Positions 6,175 through 52,091 of a DNA stretch of 64,000 nt are shown piece after piece. Within the stretch, counting starts at the first letter, position 1; every line of letters begins with the position of its first letter. The notes beneath the pieces were generated by a model, which was given only the letters and a program-made list of their open reading frames with translations, did no database searches and was not told the DNA's origin. The DNA lies in contig JBBCGO010000001.1 in assembly GCA_037200925.1 (NCBI GenBank), forward strand, positions 888,235 through 952,234, read 5' to 3'. The translations under genes and the position numbers were made by a program. Source of the DNA: Candidatus Doudnabacteria bacterium (GTDB lineage: Bacteria > Patescibacteriota > Doudnabacteria > UBA920 > O2-02-FULL-48-8).

Positions 6175-7206
6175 ATGAATAGACGATTAGTTATAATTCT
6201 AAGTGCGGTTGCTGTCGTGATCGTAGTTGTCGGGGTGCTTTTGAGCATTGCAGTACGCAAACAGAATCAGAAACAACCCACGGCTGCAGTGTTTCAGGTC
6301 AAAAAAGTTTTGGATGAAGCCGTGATCTCGCCTGTCGCGTCTTTTGACAACAACGCGATCTGGTATTTCAATTCCGAGGGCCGGCTGTTCCGGATAAACA
6401 CAGACGGATCCGGCTTGTCGGAATTCCCTCTGCCAGCGCTGTCAAGCGGGCTGCTGAATAGAGTTTTGTGGCCCAAAACCGGTTCCGATTTTATGGCGAT
6501 AGTCGGATCCGGAAGCAATGAGATCAAAAATTATTACAACAGCGCCCAGAAAATTTATATCAATCTGCCTGCTAATATCCAAAGTATTGACTGGATGCCT
6601 GATTCGCAGCGCGTGGTGTATATCTGGAAATCAGGTGACAACATGCACCAGCAGTTAGTTATGGCCAATGCCGACGGCACGGGTTTTACGGCGATCAAGG
6701 ACGTGTTTTGGCCGGATCTGGTTGTAAAAGCGGGCAATGACGGCAAAACCGTTCTGCTTTACCGCTCAGGCATCCAAGGAGACAGCAATAAAGTTTATTA
6801 TGCAAATTTGGACACGGGAGTAATCGCTACGGCTGTGGATTCAGGAAAAACTATTTCTGCCCAATGGCTGCCGGTAGGCAGCAGGTTCGTATTTGCCCAG
6901 ATCTCGCTCACGGCCTATCCTAAATTATATCTTTATGATTTTACCAACCACCAAGCGGTGGATTTGAGCTTGAATACCACGCTTGACAAGATCACTTTTG
7001 ACAGCGACGGCAAATACATGTATGCGGCGGTTCCGAAGAAAGACAATTCCGGCGATATCTTTGTTAAAGTGGATTTGACCAGTTTCAAACAAGAAACTTA
7101 TTTTGAGCCTGACCAGAACATCAGTGCAACACGATTATTTTTGGCCGGCAGCCAGCTTTATTTCGTGAACAGCCAGGATCAGAAATTGTATACTATAAGC
7201 AAATAA
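6175..7206 (+). CDS. Membrane-anchored TolB-like/PD40 beta-propeller repeat protein.
   Basis: N-terminal TM helix, then repeated 'DGSG/DGT..' and 'W.PD...V' segments typical of PD40/TolB-type propeller blades. Confidence 0.4.
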   Translation: MNRRLVIILSAVAVVIVVVGVLLSIAVRKQNQKQPTAAVFQVKKVLDEAVISPVASFDNNAIWYFNSEGRLFRINTDGSGLSEFPLPALSSGLLNRVLWPKTGSDFMAIVGSGSNEIKNYYNSAQKIYINLPANIQSIDWMPDSQRVVYIWKSGDNMHQQLVMANADGTGFTAIKDVFWPDLVVKAGNDGKTVLLYRSGIQGDSNKVYYANLDTGVIATAVDSGKTISAQWLPVGSRFVFAQISLTAYPKLYLYDFTNHQAVDLSLNTTLDKITFDSDGKYMYAAVPKKDNSGDIFVKVDLTSFKQETYFEPDQNISATRLFLAGSQLYFVNSQDQKLYTISK

Positions 7207-17082: not shown

Positions 17083-17430
17083 ATGGATGTAGATGCGGTC
17101 ATCAAATACCTGCAGGTGACGCAGCAGGATTTGAGTTGGATCACTCCGCCAAATTGGTCAGGACGCCGATATGTCGCTTATGAGATCTATGGAACTTTTA
17201 GAATAAGCGGATTTAACCGGTCATGCCCGCTGTCGCGGATCATAGATCAAGGCGTAGATCGATTAAATAGATTTGTGCCAGTCCCGGAACAAAAAAGGAT
17301 CATCCAGGCTTCTTTTGCGGTAACAGATTTTTTTGATCTTACTTCGAACCACAACACGATGCTTCGAAGAATTAGCCGTCAAGAACTGGAATTTGAAGTT
17401 TCGACGCATCCATTTTTGCCGTTCACATAA
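17083..17430 (+). CDS. Hypothetical protein.
   Basis: 115-aa ORF with a terminator hairpin downstream (17432-17458). No recognisable domain. Confidence 0.3.
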   Translation: MDVDAVIKYLQVTQQDLSWITPPNWSGRRYVAYEIYGTFRISGFNRSCPLSRIIDQGVDRLNRFVPVPEQKRIIQASFAVTDFFDLTSNHNTMLRRISRQELEFEVSTHPFLPFT

Positions 17431-17470
17431 GAGAAAGCGCTGTGCTTTTCTCTTTTTTATTACTGCATTT

Positions 17471-17500
17471 GCTCATGACTTTAGTCATGAGCATGCTCAG
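17471..17500. repeat. Palindromic motif built from GTCATGAGC/GCTCATGAC units, copy 1.
   Basis: gctcatgac-ttta-gtcatgagc-at-gctcag. It shares at least a 16-nt core with the perfect 22-nt palindrome at 37639-37660 and lies at the edge of the G+C-rich island. Confidence 0.6.
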
Positions 17501-17534
17501 TAGCAAAAAAAGAGCCAACCGCTTGCGCAGTTGG

Positions 17535-17843
17535 CTATTTGAACCCCAGGTCAGCCGCCTTCGACGGTCCGAGATGGACCATCAGTCCATGAGACCAGAG
17601 GACGTCACGTAGATCGTACAGCGATTTTCTTCCGAAATTGCCGACGCGCATGAGCTCGCCTTCGTCGGCGACCAGGATCTTGCGCAGGGACCACCCCGAC
17701 AAAGCTTGCTGTACGCGCAGGGGGAGTTCGGCCCGAATCTCGGCTTCCGTTGCTTTCGCTCCGATTTTCCGGATCCGTCCCGACAATCGTGCACGCCGTC
17801 CATGCAGTTCGGTTGCTGTTGGTTCGCTCCAGATCATTAACAC
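17535..17843 (-). CDS. Orphan RNA polymerase alpha-subunit C-terminal-domain (alpha-CTD)-like protein.
   Basis: 'ELPLRVQQALSGWSLRKILVADEGELMRVGNFGRKSLYDLRDVLWSHGL' aligns with RpoA-CTD 'LDLSVRSYNCLKRAGI...MKVRNLGRKSLEEVKAKLEELGL'. Only 102 aa with no alpha-NTD. G+C-rich, with an AGGAGG SD 8 nt upstream. Confidence 0.5.
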   Translation of the reverse strand: MLMIWSEPTATELHGRRARLSGRIRKIGAKATEAEIRAELPLRVQQALSGWSLRKILVADEGELMRVGNFGRKSLYDLRDVLWSHGLMVHLGPSKAADLGFK

Positions 17844-17935
17844 TGCCTCCTGTTGGCTTTTGAGGAGGTACCGAACTTTAAAGTCCGGAACCGCCTACTA
17901 TCAGAATAAGAGCAAGGTCCTATCTGTAATAACTA

Positions 17936-17965
17936 ATTTTACTCATAGTTTTGTCATTTTGTCAA
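17936..17965 (-). promoter_or_regulatory. Sigma-70-type promoter for the alpha-CTD-like gene.
   Basis: Minus strand TTGACA-18 nt-TAAAAT (plus-strand tgtcaa at 17960-17965 and atttta at 17936-17941). Confidence 0.4.
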
Positions 17966-18021
17966 TAGTTAAATAAACAAAAAAGACCCCGGACCAAGTC
18001 CGGGGCGGGGTGTATTAGGGA

Positions 18022-19821: not shown

Positions 19822-21269
19822 TGGAAATTCTTGACCTGACAGTTAAAACTGCTGCTGATTTGCTGGCGAATAAGAAAATTTCCGCTAAAGAATTGGCCCA
19901 ATTATCTTTGAAGCGAATTAAACAGATAGATGATAAATTGCATGCATTTTTGTATGTTGCGGAAAAAGAAGCACTGGCTTCCGCAGACAAAGCTGACGGC
20001 CTGATCGCAGATGGCGAGAATTTTTCGCTCACAGGGATCCCTTACGCGGCCAAGGACAATATTTTGGTAAAAGGACTTCAAGCTACCGCCGCTTCGAAAA
20101 TTTTGGAAAATTACAAAGCAACCTATGACGCTACGGTTATTAAGAAATTAAACGAAGAACAGCCGGTGCTCATGGGTAAAACCAATCTAGATGAATTTGC
20201 CATGGGTTCCTCGACCGAAAATTCAGCCTACGGGCCGACGAAAAATCCTTACGATCTCACCCGCGTGCCGGGCGGTTCCTCAGGCGGCTCCGCTGCCGCG
20301 GTTGCGTCCGGCGAAGTTCTGTTCGCACTCGGCACAGATACCGGCGGATCGGTCAGGCAGCCGGCCAGCTTTTGCGGGATCGTCGGTTTTAAGCCGACGT
20401 ACGGCCGCGCTTCCCGCTACGGTTTGATAGCTTTGGGATCCTCCCTGGATCAGGTCGGAGTGCTGGCCAAAACGGTTGAAGATACGGCAGCGGTTTTTGA
20501 GATTATTGCGGGACAGGATTCTTATGATTCCACATCATTGCCCAAGCCCGTGCCTGATTACGGCAGTTTTTTAAAAGAAGACATGAAGGGAATAAAAATC
20601 GGAATTCCAAAAGAATATTTCATTGACGGCTTAGATCCGGAGGTTGATGCGATCGTAAAGAACGCTGTAAAAAAAATGCAGGAGTTGGGAGCCGAGGTTT
20701 CTGAAATGAGCCTGCCGCATTCCTCGTACGCTTTGGCCTGCTATTATATTATTTTGCCGGTTGAAATTTCCGCAAATCTTTCCAGGTATGACGGCATCCG
20801 CTACGGCCTGTCAGCCGCCGGGAACAATTTGGAAGAAGTTTATTATAACACCCGGTCAAAGGGATTTGGCGCGGAACCCAAGCGCCGGATCATGATTGGC
20901 ACTTATGCATCTTCCGCCGGATATTTTGACGCTTATTACAAAAAAGCCAAACAGGCCCAACAGCTCATCCGCCGGGATTTTATCGATGCTTTTAAAAAAT
21001 TCGATCTGATCGTCACTCCCACAACCCCGGCTCCGGCCTTCAAGCTCGGCGAAAAAACCGATCCGCTTTCCATGTATCTGGCGGATATTTTTACCGTCGG
21101 ACTGAACATCGCTGGCGTGCCGGGAATTTCAATTCCGGCCGGAACCACAAAGGCAGGCCTCCCGGTCGGGGTCCAGCTTGTGGCCGACCACTTTGCGGAA
21201 GAAAAATTGTTTGGCGCCGCGTTTGCTCTAGAAAAATCTTTAAACTTATCATTAAAACCAAAAATATGA
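19821..21269 (+). CDS. gatA: Asp/Glu-tRNA amidotransferase subunit A (amidase).
   Basis: Amidase signature 'GGSSGGSAAAVASG', 482 aa. Confidence 0.85.
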   Translation: MEILDLTVKTAADLLANKKISAKELAQLSLKRIKQIDDKLHAFLYVAEKEALASADKADGLIADGENFSLTGIPYAAKDNILVKGLQATAASKILENYKATYDATVIKKLNEEQPVLMGKTNLDEFAMGSSTENSAYGPTKNPYDLTRVPGGSSGGSAAAVASGEVLFALGTDTGGSVRQPASFCGIVGFKPTYGRASRYGLIALGSSLDQVGVLAKTVEDTAAVFEIIAGQDSYDSTSLPKPVPDYGSFLKEDMKGIKIGIPKEYFIDGLDPEVDAIVKNAVKKMQELGAEVSEMSLPHSSYALACYYIILPVEISANLSRYDGIRYGLSAAGNNLEEVYYNTRSKGFGAEPKRRIMIGTYASSAGYFDAYYKKAKQAQQLIRRDFIDAFKKFDLIVTPTTPAPAFKLGEKTDPLSMYLADIFTVGLNIAGVPGISIPAGTTKAGLPVGVQLVADHFAEEKLFGAAFALEKSLNLSLKPKI

Positions 21270-21670
21270 AAAAGAAAATTTTTGTTTTGATATTTATTTT
21301 CACTCTGACGGCCCCATTGCTTGCCGCTGCCGCTCCATGCTCTGTTAACGTAAATAATAACCCGCCGCTTACACCCAAGGACTTGCCGATATGCGTTAAT
21401 CAGATCTATATCTGGTCGCTCGGCATTTCGGCCCTTTTGGCCATGCTGATCCTGGTTATAGGCGGATATTACTACATGACAGCTTCCGGGAATGCCGAGC
21501 AATCGGGTAAGGGGATTCAAATGATCTGGTCGGCTGTTATTGGTTTGGGGCTTTTGTTCGCTGCCTATTTATTGCTGCATACTATCAATCCGGATCTGGT
21601 TAATTTTCCGGTAAATTCGTTAAATACAATTAATCAGCCTCAGCCAGGGCCCCGTCAAACGCCCCAATAA
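21266..21670 (+). CDS. Secreted small membrane protein, candidate TrbC/VirB2-family pilin, nested between gatA and gatB.
   Basis: Signal peptide MKKKIFVLIFIFTLTAPLLAAAA, then two hydrophobic helices separated by a short polar loop (TASGNAEQSGKG) and a Pro/Gln tail. Its start overlaps the gatA stop and its stop is 1 nt from the gatB start. Confidence 0.45.
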   Translation: MKKKIFVLIFIFTLTAPLLAAAAPCSVNVNNNPPLTPKDLPICVNQIYIWSLGISALLAMLILVIGGYYYMTASGNAEQSGKGIQMIWSAVIGLGLLFAAYLLLHTINPDLVNFPVNSLNTINQPQPGPRQTPQ

Positions 21671-36096: not shown

Positions 36097-36100
36097 GTAG

Positions 36101-36664
36101 ATGAACACGCAACTTGAACTGATGCTGAAGGTTTGGGAGAGGCTGAACAACGAAGTGCTCCAGTACATGCGCATGCTGGACTATTGGATAATGTTCCTGA
36201 TCGCGCTGCTCGTGTTCCTCATCTACGCTTCGCGACAGGAAGGTTATCGCGATTTCATTGTCTGGGCCGCTGTCACGGGCGCTATTACGCCGGTTTGGAT
36301 CGGCAGGATAGACGTGCTGATTCACAGGCCGGTGCCGGCCACGATCGCGATCGAAGAGGAGATCAATGAATACCTGAGGCGCGATCCATCAGGGGAGCGG
36401 TTGAGGGAGGAACTGAAGCTTGGTCCGAGGTTTAAGACCTGGGAAAATTACTACAAACCCGGACTCAAGACCGGCGTCAAGATCCTCGTCCCTTTGGATG
36501 CTGTTGCGCTCGTGTTCCTTCTTTTCCTGTTCGCGCATGCCAACAACCGCGCGGCTCAATTCCTTGCGGACACAGGCTGGTCGGGCGTTTTCTGGTGGGG
36601 GTGCTGGGTCGTCTTTGTGTGCGGCGTCGGCATAATTGCCGCAGCCAAACCACTGGCGGAGTGA
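36101..36664 (+). CDS. Integral membrane protein, island gene P2, no recognisable domain.
   Basis: 187 aa with TM segments 'YWIMFLIALLVFLIY', 'ILVPLDAVALVFLLFLF', 'GVFWWGCWVVFVCGVGIIAAA'. SD GAGGTGAG. G+C-rich. Confidence 0.45.
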   Translation: MNTQLELMLKVWERLNNEVLQYMRMLDYWIMFLIALLVFLIYASRQEGYRDFIVWAAVTGAITPVWIGRIDVLIHRPVPATIAIEEEINEYLRRDPSGERLREELKLGPRFKTWENYYKPGLKTGVKILVPLDAVALVFLLFLFAHANNRAAQFLADTGWSGVFWWGCWVVFVCGVGIIAAAKPLAE

Positions 36665-36681
36665 AGCTGGGAGGAAAAAAC

Positions 36682-36978
36682 GTGACGCTGATCCTGGTAA
36701 TATTGGCAGCCGCTGCAGGTTTCGCGGCCGGAATACTGTACCGCCATTGGAATCAGTTGCCGGAGACTCGCGAACTTGGGGTATACCGCACCTGGCTCTG
36801 GCGGTCAGACATGAATGACGGCCCGATCAATCAGCCCGGAACAAAGTTCAGATTCAGCCTCGACGGCCGCAAGAGCATCTGGTGGGCGCAGGTTAAACCT
36901 GACGGCAGCGTAGGACCGGGAGAACTGGTGGCAGAGCCGCTCCCTTATCTGGAAGGTCCGCCAGTCGCGATCCATTAA
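36682..36978 (+). CDS. Membrane-anchored small protein, island gene P3 (GTG start).
   Basis: GGAGG then 8 nt then GTG. TM 'LILVILAAAAGFAAGIL' then a soluble domain of about 70 aa. Confidence 0.4.
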   Translation: MTLILVILAAAAGFAAGILYRHWNQLPETRELGVYRTWLWRSDMNDGPINQPGTKFRFSLDGRKSIWWAQVKPDGSVGPGELVAEPLPYLEGPPVAIH

Positions 36979-37054
36979 GCCCTCCGGGCAATCCGGTCGG
37001 CTTCTTTTTTTGGCTAATTTTGCTAGAATGTAATGAACTTCAGCAGGAGGATCC

Positions 37055-37609
37055 ATGAAGCCTAAGACCAAACCTTTGCATGAGTTTGAAATAGCGCAGT
37101 ATGCCGTGTATATGGCGCTACAACAAATGCAGAAAGAGATAGAAACCGGAGTTGAAGGATTCATTTCAAAATATCTTCGGATCTGCGGCGCCTTGGCGGT
37201 TGCGATCATTCTCGCGTTTTGGATGGGCGGTGCGATCCATCCGATCCGGTGGGGGTTGGTCGGTCTGAAATGGACAGCGATCGCGTACTGCACGCTGATC
37301 CTGCTTTGGACCTGCAGGGTTAAATTCTTCATCAACCGGGACCGCCGGCGGGGGATAAGCGAAGTCAGGCGTTTAAAGGCACTGCTTCGGAGGTGCTTGT
37401 TCAAAGGCAAGTGCCTCAATCGCCGCACAAAACTGCATCTAGCCAGAAATTATTTTGTCTGGTACGGACTGGGAATGTTCGGGAATCCCGGCCTTGCCGT
37501 CTGGTTGTATGTGATCAAAGCCAGAGCTTTCGTTTGTTGCTACTTTTTTCTGTTCACCGGCCTGTTCCGGCTGCGGAAACTGGATCAGCAAAATGCAGCC
37601 AATCTGTAA
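37055..37609 (+). CDS. Integral membrane protein, island gene P4.
   Basis: AGGAGG SD. TM helices 'ICGALAVAIILAFWMGGAI', 'WTAIAYCTLILLW', 'LAVWLYVIKARAFVCCYFFLFTGLF'. 184 aa. Confidence 0.45.
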   Translation: MKPKTKPLHEFEIAQYAVYMALQQMQKEIETGVEGFISKYLRICGALAVAIILAFWMGGAIHPIRWGLVGLKWTAIAYCTLILLWTCRVKFFINRDRRRGISEVRRLKALLRRCLFKGKCLNRRTKLHLARNYFVWYGLGMFGNPGLAVWLYVIKARAFVCCYFFLFTGLFRLRKLDQQNAANL

Positions 37610-37638
37610 GATTGGCTTTTCTTTTTGCTCAGTACCTA

Positions 37639-37660
37639 AGTCATGAGCATGCTCATGACT
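37639..37660. repeat. Perfect 22-nt palindrome AGTCATGAGCATGCTCATGACT (copy 2 of the island-associated motif).
   Basis: Its own reverse complement. The core is shared with 17471-17500. It lies 30 nt after the P4 stop. Confidence 0.65.
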
Positions 37661-37707
37661 AAAACACGGTCAGCTTAGTTCAGTCAGGTTTTTTACAAAA
37701 AAAAGAA

Positions 37708-37727
37708 CGGTTGCATATGTACAACCG
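37708..37727 (-). terminator. Hairpin plus T-run terminator for the convergent island gene P5.
   Basis: cggttg-catatgta-caaccg stem-loop, followed on the minus strand by TTCTTTTTTTT. Confidence 0.45.
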
Positions 37728-37742
37728 CTCGAAAAAGAAGCG

Positions 37743-38417
37743 TCAGAGACTGGGAACTGCGATGATCTTTCCATCAACCTCGATCAGATCCTGCAGTCCA
37801 TCCCAGCCGTAGAAGTACTCGGATTCGATGCCGCGCCGGCCAATATAGATGACCTTGAGAAACGGGTCGGCGCCCAGCCTATGGACCTCAAATTCGGCTT
37901 GGGGAAGTTTGTGGCAGATCCATTTCATCAGCATCAGCCCCGGATGAGGGATATCCCGGTTGCGATGAACCGGGCTGATGGTCCACTCATAATTAACCGT
38001 GCGTGCCGCCGCCGTGTCCAGACCGCTTTCCGCGTAGGAGAACGCGACTAAAGCTGCGACCGAGAGGATGAATCCCGCAGCCGGATAGAACGTGAGCGAT
38101 GTCCATCCTAGGCTCGCGAAGTTCGTTGTGAGGTGATCAGCAACCAGGGCCAGAATGCCGATCACGATCCCGAGAGCTGAGCCCAAAGCAGTCCACATGA
38201 TCGCACAGCAGAGCTTATGGATGCCGGCCAGCAGGCGTGGTTGTGCCACGGCCATGCGTTCAGACCAGCAGGCGGCGGCCAGCGCCTCTTGCCGTACTTG
38301 GGCTTTGTACGCTGACACGGCGTCAGGTGAGAACACGGTGATCTGCAGATCTTCCAGGACGTTGGCCAGGGTCGGAGTCACAAGAACAGGTCGCGCCGCA
38401 AACACAGCAGTTCCCAT
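37743..38417 (-). CDS. Membrane protein, island gene P5: cytoplasmic N-domain, two TM helices, C-terminal domain.
   Basis: AGGAGG SD. TM 'AIMWTALGSALGIVIGILALV' and 'FYPAAGFILSVAALVAF'. 224 aa, G+C-rich, no recognised domain. Confidence 0.45.
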   Translation of the reverse strand: MGTAVFAARPVLVTPTLANVLEDLQITVFSPDAVSAYKAQVRQEALAAACWSERMAVAQPRLLAGIHKLCCAIMWTALGSALGIVIGILALVADHLTTNFASLGWTSLTFYPAAGFILSVAALVAFSYAESGLDTAAARTVNYEWTISPVHRNRDIPHPGLMLMKWICHKLPQAEFEVHRLGADPFLKVIYIGRRGIESEYFYGWDGLQDLIEVDGKIIAVPSL

Positions 38418-38630
38418 ACCGCCTCCTTGAGAAAAGTTAAGATTATTTTATCATAAGCTGGTTTTGGTTTCCATTTCGTCTTGCCTTGATCTTGGTTTTA
38501 TGATAGAATCTTTGGGTTATTAATCATACATGTTCTCCTGATGTATTTGGGGCCTGTTTTAAGGTTCAAGACAATGAATCCTTAAGATCCCAAAGCAAAT
38601 GACGGGAACAGAAGTATAAAGGACATAATT

Positions 38631-51931: not shown

Positions 51932-52091
51932 GCTTGTTGACATGATCCCGGAATTCATCTATACTGTTTAGGAATTAAATATCTCCAAAGACCGTAGCTG
52001 ACATTTGTCTTAATTCGCTACGCAGGAACAAAAATCACTTAGTGATATTGAACCGTTGTCTTTGGACAGCGGATTTATTTTTATTAATTTA

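Follow-up and report, generated by a model that had tools for sequence, protein, structure and literature searches.

A divergent stand-alone homologue of the RNA polymerase alpha C-terminal domain in a one-gene insertion of Candidatus Doudnabacteria, with relatives beside integrases

The C-terminal domain of the RNA polymerase alpha subunit (alpha-CTD) recognises UP elements and is the part of the polymerase that most class I activators contact. Escherichia coli alpha reads the minor groove of the UP element through the residues of its DNA-binding '265 determinant' (R265, N268, C269, G296, K298, and S299), and the acidic 261 determinant (D258, D259, and E261) contacts region 4 of sigma. Since small alpha-CTD-only proteins are already annotated in phages and also occur in metagenomes, stand-alone alpha-CTD proteins are a known kind, and apparently an unstudied one; we know of no such phage protein with a tested function, in the literature searched or otherwise, and our literature search on stand-alone alpha-CTD proteins found nothing relevant. 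Mobile elements also carry small basic binders of the minor groove or of A/T tracts, such as proteins of the Xis and Sfh type, sometimes encoded beside the integrase. To our knowledge, almost nothing has been learned about transcription regulation in Patescibacteria. Here we describe a small protein related to the alpha-CTD that is encoded in a 64,000-nt stretch of a Candidatus Doudnabacteria genome (hereafter the window), and which an earlier note made from the sequence alone had singled out as an orphan alpha-CTD-like protein.

The gene and the features surrounding it, in positions of the window, are as follows.

17535 to 17837, minus strand: intact coding sequence of the alpha-CTD-like protein, 100 aa, from ATG 17837 to the stop codon at 17535, given by the ORF list and two gene callers.
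17846 to 17851, minus strand: Shine-Dalgarno sequence AGGAGG, read from the sequence, 8 nt 5' of ATG 17837.
17838 to 17929, minus strand: predicted 5' leader of about 92 nt, its transcription start placed from the position of the -10 element.
17863 to 17896, minus strand: imperfect palindrome or hairpin in the leader (inverted repeat I3), AGGCGGTTCCGGACTTTAAAGTTCGGTACCTCCT.
17936 to 17965, minus strand: putative sigma-70-type promoter TTGACA-18-TAAAAT, matching at 11/12 positions.
17966 to 17985: A/T-rich tract 5' of the promoter.
17986 to 18006, minus strand: terminator-like hairpin and T-run 3' of htpX, at the upstream edge of the cassette; 9-bp stem with 7 GC pairs, then CTTTTTTGTT.
17513 to 17536, minus strand: terminator-like hairpin at or after the stop codon of the gene; 10-bp stem with 6 GC pairs, then the T-run CTTTTTTTGC.
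17495 to 18021, minus strand: inserted cassette of 527 bp, from the htpX stop codon to the palindrome, delimited by synteny with five relatives.
17467 to 17494, no strand: ancestral palindrome ATTTGCTCATGAC-N4-GTCATGAGCAT, the downstream edge of the insertion, in common with positions 6930-6957 of the closest relative at the locus (L007).

The product is deposited at NCBI as MEJ0021930.1, a 'hypothetical protein' of Candidatus Doudnabacteria on a 964-kb contig, and its length of 100 aa was given by two independent gene callers (the NCBI record and the Logan assembly). An ORF of 102 aa at 17535-17843 on the minus strand had been reported in the earlier note; the ORF is present, but ATG 17837 is the preferred start and the product the shorter one, because the AGGAGG that the note had also pointed out, found at 17851-17846, is spaced 8 nt from this ATG vs. 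2 nt from GTG 17843. The proposed TTGACA-18-TAAAAT promoter was likewise located, at 17965..17936 on the minus strand, and promoter matches of at least 11/12 positions number 13 in the window vs. 1.4 in shuffles, an enrichment of about 9-fold, so that sites of this quality are probably genuine promoters in this genome. At the other end, the terminator-like hairpin overlaps the stop codon of the coding sequence. As read from these signals, the gene is a complete expression unit, with its own predicted promoter, Shine-Dalgarno sequence, and putative terminator. The fold of the leader RNA (-31.8 kcal/mol, z = -2.1) is only weakly unusual, and the Rfam search gave no match in the leader or elsewhere in or near the gene. 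The 3' arm of the leader hairpin ends in CCTCCT, making an alternative pairing with the AGGAGG 15 nt downstream possible, and the hairpin might act as an operator or as a switch of translation.

Related genomes share the gene order lemA-htpX-(convergent) recX-clpB. From stop codon to stop codon, htpX and recX lie 7-115 bp apart in five of these relatives (L007, L008, L009, L014, and L015) vs. 980 bp here, the closest relative at the locus being L007, with an HtpX 83% identical; the alpha-CTD-like protein is encoded in 0 of 80 related loci. Because htpX and recX adjoin in close Doudnabacteria relatives, the 527-bp cassette is an insertion. Its extent (17495-18021) is defined by the palindrome, which is near-perfect and follows htpX by 11 nt in L007, and which here stands just beyond the terminator of the alpha-CTD-like gene, the two copies agreeing at 27/28 positions (E 5e-10, BLAST-short on intergenic regions). 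This palindrome may act in termination or be bound by a protein. Within the cassette the order is terminator, promoter, leader, coding sequence, and terminator, and no flanking direct repeats usable as att sites were found around it. The arrangement recurs in a second assembly (GCA_015689235.1), with an unchanged spacing of 184 nt and a protein that is 99% identical, differing at one residue.

The possibility that the gene is the 3' remnant of a disrupted full-length rpoA, raised in the earlier note, was checked and ruled out: the gene is an insertion between htpX and recX, and no remnant coding for the alpha N-terminal domain lies upstream. Indeed, no sequence resembling this domain was found in the window, and the ORF is preceded by its own putative promoter and the htpX terminator. 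The absence of an alpha N-terminal or dimerisation region, as originally described, thus holds, the N-terminal 36 residues being specific to the family defined below.

The neighborhood of the cassette has features of its own. In the second assembly, the two contigs appear to end near the palindrome. At 42 nt 3' of recX, and on the same strand, lies ORF115 (17083-17430, plus strand), an ORFan with no match in Pfam, PHROGs, NCBIfam, or PADLOC and absent from all 80 related loci. Its sole relative, 95% identical and C-terminally shorter, is on a 693-bp contig of GCA_015689235.1, where it follows a partial upstream gene at the same 42-nt spacing; between the two assemblies ORF115 diverges more (95%) than the alpha-CTD-like gene (99%). 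In six more distant relatives (L010, L011, L012, L013, L016, and L020), unrelated ORFs of 100-210 aa occupy the place 3' of htpX, and to the eye the ORFs of 190 aa in L010, 178 aa in L012, and 169 aa in L020 look similar at their C-terminal ends. The htpX/recX intergenic site looks like a hotspot for the gain of small genes.

To assess how widely such proteins occur, we used an exhaustive HMMER search that covered 1.84 billion representatives and gave 28 matches. The relatives that are both small and full-length (P0003, P0004, and P0006) share 42-54% identity with the protein, and nine other matches scanned with Pfam all contain strong, often tandem PF03118 domains. With P0029-P0031, recovered by a profile search, the total comes to seven clusters of one or two members each, a family of seven small clusters among 5.8 billion proteins; a word-index search with the single protein returned only itself.

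While the similarity to alpha-CTD is faint at the level of single-sequence searches, it is clear at the level of profiles and predicted structure. The Pfam model PF03118 matches the ORF with E 0.0055 and 16.8 bits, below the gathering threshold of 23.8, the match being limited to the second helix-hairpin-helix (profile positions 37-65). Weak matches of similar strength occur in six of the seven family members, and searches of NCBIfam and PDB sequences gave an equally weak signal confined to the C-terminal part. A PDB profile search reached E 7.6e-6, an HMM made from ten bona fide alpha-CTD domains matched this ORF alone in the six-frame translated window (E 4.4e-10), and hhalign of the seven-member family vs. 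these ten domains gave 98% probability and E 1.5e-13 over 54 columns, which correspond to E. coli alpha residues 261-317 and take in both helix-hairpin-helix motifs. The resemblance to the RpoA C-terminal domain over about 55 residues that the earlier note had described is thereby confirmed. AlphaFold2 with the family alignment returned a model with pLDDT 85.3 and pTM 0.73, for which alpha-CTD chains occupy nearly all of the first 47 ranks of a Foldseek search against the PDB; the structural check that had been suggested thus came out in favor of the assignment, the best superpositions on alpha-CTD having an rmsd of 1.3-1.4 Å over 55 columns, with 33% identity and TM (target) of 0.57-0.74. Many proteins with bona fide PF03118 repeats are also among the HMMER matches to the protein. 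Because hhalign, the alpha-CTD HMM, AlphaFold2, and Foldseek agree, homology and fold are established: by profile and by model, the protein is a true but divergent alpha-CTD homologue despite its sub-threshold Pfam score. Of the PF03118 search that had been proposed as a check, the homology stands by profile-profile comparison, and the Pfam cut-off is not reached.

These comparisons bear on the notion that the ORF is spurious or non-functional, with a chance helix-hairpin-helix likeness in a non-coding or decaying insertion. Such an explanation would be consistent with a Pfam score under the gathering threshold and with the tiny size of the family, but it sits poorly with the profile-profile E value and with a model that superposes on alpha-CTD at 1.3 Å. 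Moreover, dN/dS is 0.13 at dS 0.76 (P0031 vs. P0030), indicating that the family is under purifying selection, 23 residues are invariant among family members that share only 41-57% identity, and a canonical Shine-Dalgarno sequence, promoter, and terminator are present. Collectively, these data largely refute a spurious ORF, which we regard as barely credible.

The protein consists of two parts, a core and an extension.

17568 to 17729, minus strand: double helix-hairpin-helix core, aa 37-90, delimited by hhalign, Foldseek, and the PDB profile search.
17727 to 17816, minus strand: basic N-terminal helical extension, aa 8-37, delimited by the family alignment and the AlphaFold2 model.

In the hhalign register, R41 corresponds to R265 of E. 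coli alpha, Q44 to N268, A45 to C269, G69 to G296, K71 to K298, and S72 to S299. R41, G69, R70, K71, and S/T72 are invariant across the seven family members, which therefore retain the 265 determinant at the equivalents of R265, G296, K298, and S299; the family has N, Q, H, R, or K at the position of N268 and C, A, or V at that of C269, and N294 is without conservation. The acidic 261 determinant is lost, with D258 and D259 replaced by I34 and R35 (or F) and the E261 position variable (E/S/N), and the region aligned to it belongs to the added N-terminal helix; the positions of the 287 determinant are not conserved. The extension has no counterpart in alpha-CTD by hhalign. It is invariant at R14, L18, R21, I22, R23, K24, and G26 in the seven-member alignment, and in the AlphaFold2 model it forms helices at residues 8-25 and 27-37 (pLDDT 84-92). 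The protein has a pI of 10.3 and a net charge of +6, vs. 5.1 and -3 for the E. coli alpha-CTD, and the other family members have a pI of 8.4-10.8.

On the strength of these comparisons and of the model, we propose that the protein may be a mobile-element-derived, alpha-CTD-fold regulator or architectural factor that binds DNA in the minor groove, a proposal that we consider about evenly balanced between right and wrong. A divergent double helix-hairpin-helix of alpha-CTD type combined with an Arg/Lys-rich N-terminal helix would make a small basic DNA-binding protein, which, lacking the alpha N-terminal domain, could not be assembled into RNA polymerase. Most likely it would bind the narrow minor groove of A/T-rich DNA as alpha-CTD binds UP elements, with R41 (the R265 equivalent) and the G-[RK]-K-[ST] hairpin (equivalent to G296-S299) making the minor-groove contacts and the extra basic N-terminal helix adding contacts to the backbone. 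DNA binding, a preference for A/T-rich sequence, and a regulatory role are thus properties that we infer for this protein.

The same residues may be viewed differently, with the protein acting as a decoy or competitor for RNA polymerase alpha that either sits on UP elements or sequesters the usual contacts of alpha-CTD, whether activators, sigma region 4, or NusA-type partners; the outcome would be a global damping of UP- or activator-dependent transcription, such as a mobile element might use for takeover or silencing. The retained fold and DNA-contact residues would fit competition for A/T-rich DNA, a protein without the N-terminal domain could not recruit polymerase, small alpha-CTD-only proteins are annotated in phages, and phages are known to attack the interaction of alpha-CTD with UP elements, as in T4 Alt/ModA and phage G1 gp67 (PMC2988021, PMC3694059). 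However, since the 261 determinant is replaced (I34, R35, and a variable E261 position) and the 287-determinant positions are not conserved, faithful mimicry of the protein-contact surfaces is unlikely, and the added basic helix and a pI of 10 point to a DNA binder with its own specificity. We therefore consider a decoy rather unlikely. That an element-borne mimic of alpha-CTD competes with alpha at UP-like A/T tracts, or covers A/T-rich DNA in the manner of a xenogeneic silencer, is a long shot in our estimation; if true, it would constitute a new class of transcription-modulating factor, apparently found mainly in Patescibacteria and captured and kept by the Doudnabacteria chromosome.

The protein and its relatives come from four independent genomic contexts, two of which are in elements with integrases or a relaxase. 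The gene for P0003 (locus L005) directly follows that of a tyrosine integrase, at a distance of 200 bp, and its element also has a DNA methyltransferase, an FtsK/DUF87-type ATPase, and a Replic_Relax relaxase. P0031 and P0030 (L002-L004) lie in a conserved module of the order 313-105-alpha-CTD-like-111, which is 84-85% identical between two samples; a T4SS coupling protein precedes this module, and a serine integrase follows it at a distance of about 1.6 kb. P0004 and P0029 have chromosome-like contexts, beside TrmB and followed by an overlapping, non-homologous small ORF; these two TrmB proteins are just 34% identical over an alignment of 118 residues, and the window itself lacks TrmB. Across the four contexts no conserved neighboring gene was found, and in two of them, this window and L006/L088, a recombinase is absent nearby. 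T4SS genes are mostly chromosomal in Patescibacteria (PMC12102498), so that those near P0031 are weak markers of a mobile element, and the recombinases and the relaxase are the stronger ones. Taken together, the family is very rare, apparently found mainly in Patescibacteria, and associated with mobile elements.

The position of two of these genes near an integrase raises the alternative of an excisionase-like RDF or architectural cofactor of the integrase, with the window copy as the relic of a lost element. Size and charge would suit such a role, as would the adjoining tyrosine integrase in L005 and the serine integrase in L002-L004, and no mobility genes stand beside the window copy, neither the window nor L006 having an integrase. 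Yet tyrosine and serine integrases are unrelated and one type of cofactor rarely serves both, the fold is unlike that of known Xis proteins, and the protein matched no excisionase or RDF family of Pfam, PHROGs, or NCBIfam. The L005 gene has its own promoter-like site, read from its upstream sequence, and is not co-transcribed with int. The window copy, with its 11/12 promoter and 99% conservation in a second strain, is unlike a decaying relic. An RDF is accordingly improbable, and we favor the minor-groove regulator or architectural protein, which would be element-encoded and travel with integrative elements, the Doudnabacteria copy probably surviving between htpX and recX as an autonomous one-gene cassette.

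A phage origin, also considered in the earlier note, finds no support at the sequence level, as no family members were detected in PHROGs, in INPHARED phages or PLSDB plasmids (both by tblastn), or in IMG/VR; nor did the PADLOC models of anti-phage defence match the protein. In a scan of JGI metagenomes, a first pattern gave no match, and a second recovered the known L002 contig, full-length RpoA genes, and two canonical small alpha-CTD ORFs (L090 and L098) of 93 aa and at least 108 aa. The best structural matches in BFVD are small phage proteins annotated 'RNA polymerase, alpha subunit, C-terminal', among them A0A6J7WD60 (135 aa), A0A6J5NZM6 (111 aa), and A0A2P1JY10 of Rhodococcus phage Finch. 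The search for stand-alone alpha-CTD proteins of phages and mobile elements that the note had recommended thus found structural analogues in phages but no sequence relatives in the phage and plasmid collections.

A foreign or mobile origin of the gene, likewise proposed, is supported by synteny and by the relatives beside integrases and a relaxase, rather than by base composition as the earlier note had argued. The elevated G+C content is real (58.3-58.7% vs. 46.6%, the 98.9th percentile), but the GC3 of the gene (0.644) is host-like, equal to that of the neighboring clpB, lemA, and htpX (0.61-0.64). Codon positions 1 and 2 account for the excess, which therefore reflects amino-acid composition; high G+C is consequently not evidence of (recent) foreign origin, and we rejected it as a sign of foreignness.

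Elsewhere in the window, a second G+C-elevated stretch extends from about 36100 to 38420, between prfA/prmC and rpsB/tsf, with ORFs at 36101-36664 (plus strand), 36805-37428 (minus), 37055-37609 (plus), and 37743-38417 (minus) that encode 184-224 aa and have no Pfam match. A T4SS_pilin gene (PF18895, 134 aa, 21266-21670, plus strand) is wedged between gatA and gatB. Rfam found ten sites in the window, including an L10 leader at 51967-52088 (plus strand) upstream of rplJ and eight tRNA genes.

The family keeps the DNA-reading residues of alpha-CTD, loses the patch that contacts sigma, gains a basic helix, and appears to ride integrative elements in the ultra-small Patescibacteria. The protein is therefore a small and easily purified candidate with which to ask whether mobile elements use mimics of polymerase domains to tune the transcription of the host or of the element. 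If it is only an ordinary small DNA-binding regulator, its value is limited to the annotation of seven 'hypothetical protein' clusters.

Compared with the alpha-CTD of RpoA (PF03118; PDB 1LB2, 3K4G, and 9ZUM), the protein has the same double helix-hairpin-helix fold, but it is untethered to an alpha N-terminal domain, has a deletion of three residues in the first hairpin, carries an extra pair of basic N-terminal helices and a short C-terminal helix, and is basic (pI 10.3) where the alpha-CTD is acidic (pI 5.1). With excisionases or RDFs and the nucleoid-associated 'stealth' proteins of plasmids (lambda Xis and the H-NS-like Sfh), the likeness would be one of role only; their folds are unrelated, and they have no homology to the protein. 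The best sequence matches outside the family (E 8e-22 to 1e-6) are multi-repeat alpha-CTD proteins, which demonstrate that the alpha-CTD module is reused outside RpoA: P0002 has 11 PF03118 repeats, and P0007, P0009, and P0010 have 3-4 repeats together with sigma-70 region 4. The latter three also possess a long C-terminal region and are an unusual reuse of two promoter-reading modules. Unlike the present family, the multi-repeat proteins are large, with tandem canonical repeats, and are without the single-domain basic form and the N-terminal extension. The small alpha-CTD proteins of phages and those of L090 and L098 are likewise stand-alone, with about 90-200 aa, in mobile or viral DNA, and without an N-terminal domain; the phage proteins carry a canonical alpha-CTD sequence recognised by Pfam and have no sequence-level link to the family described here. 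Nothing in our data shows an unusual mechanism, and the protein is a new, divergent variant among stand-alone proteins of the alpha-CTD fold.
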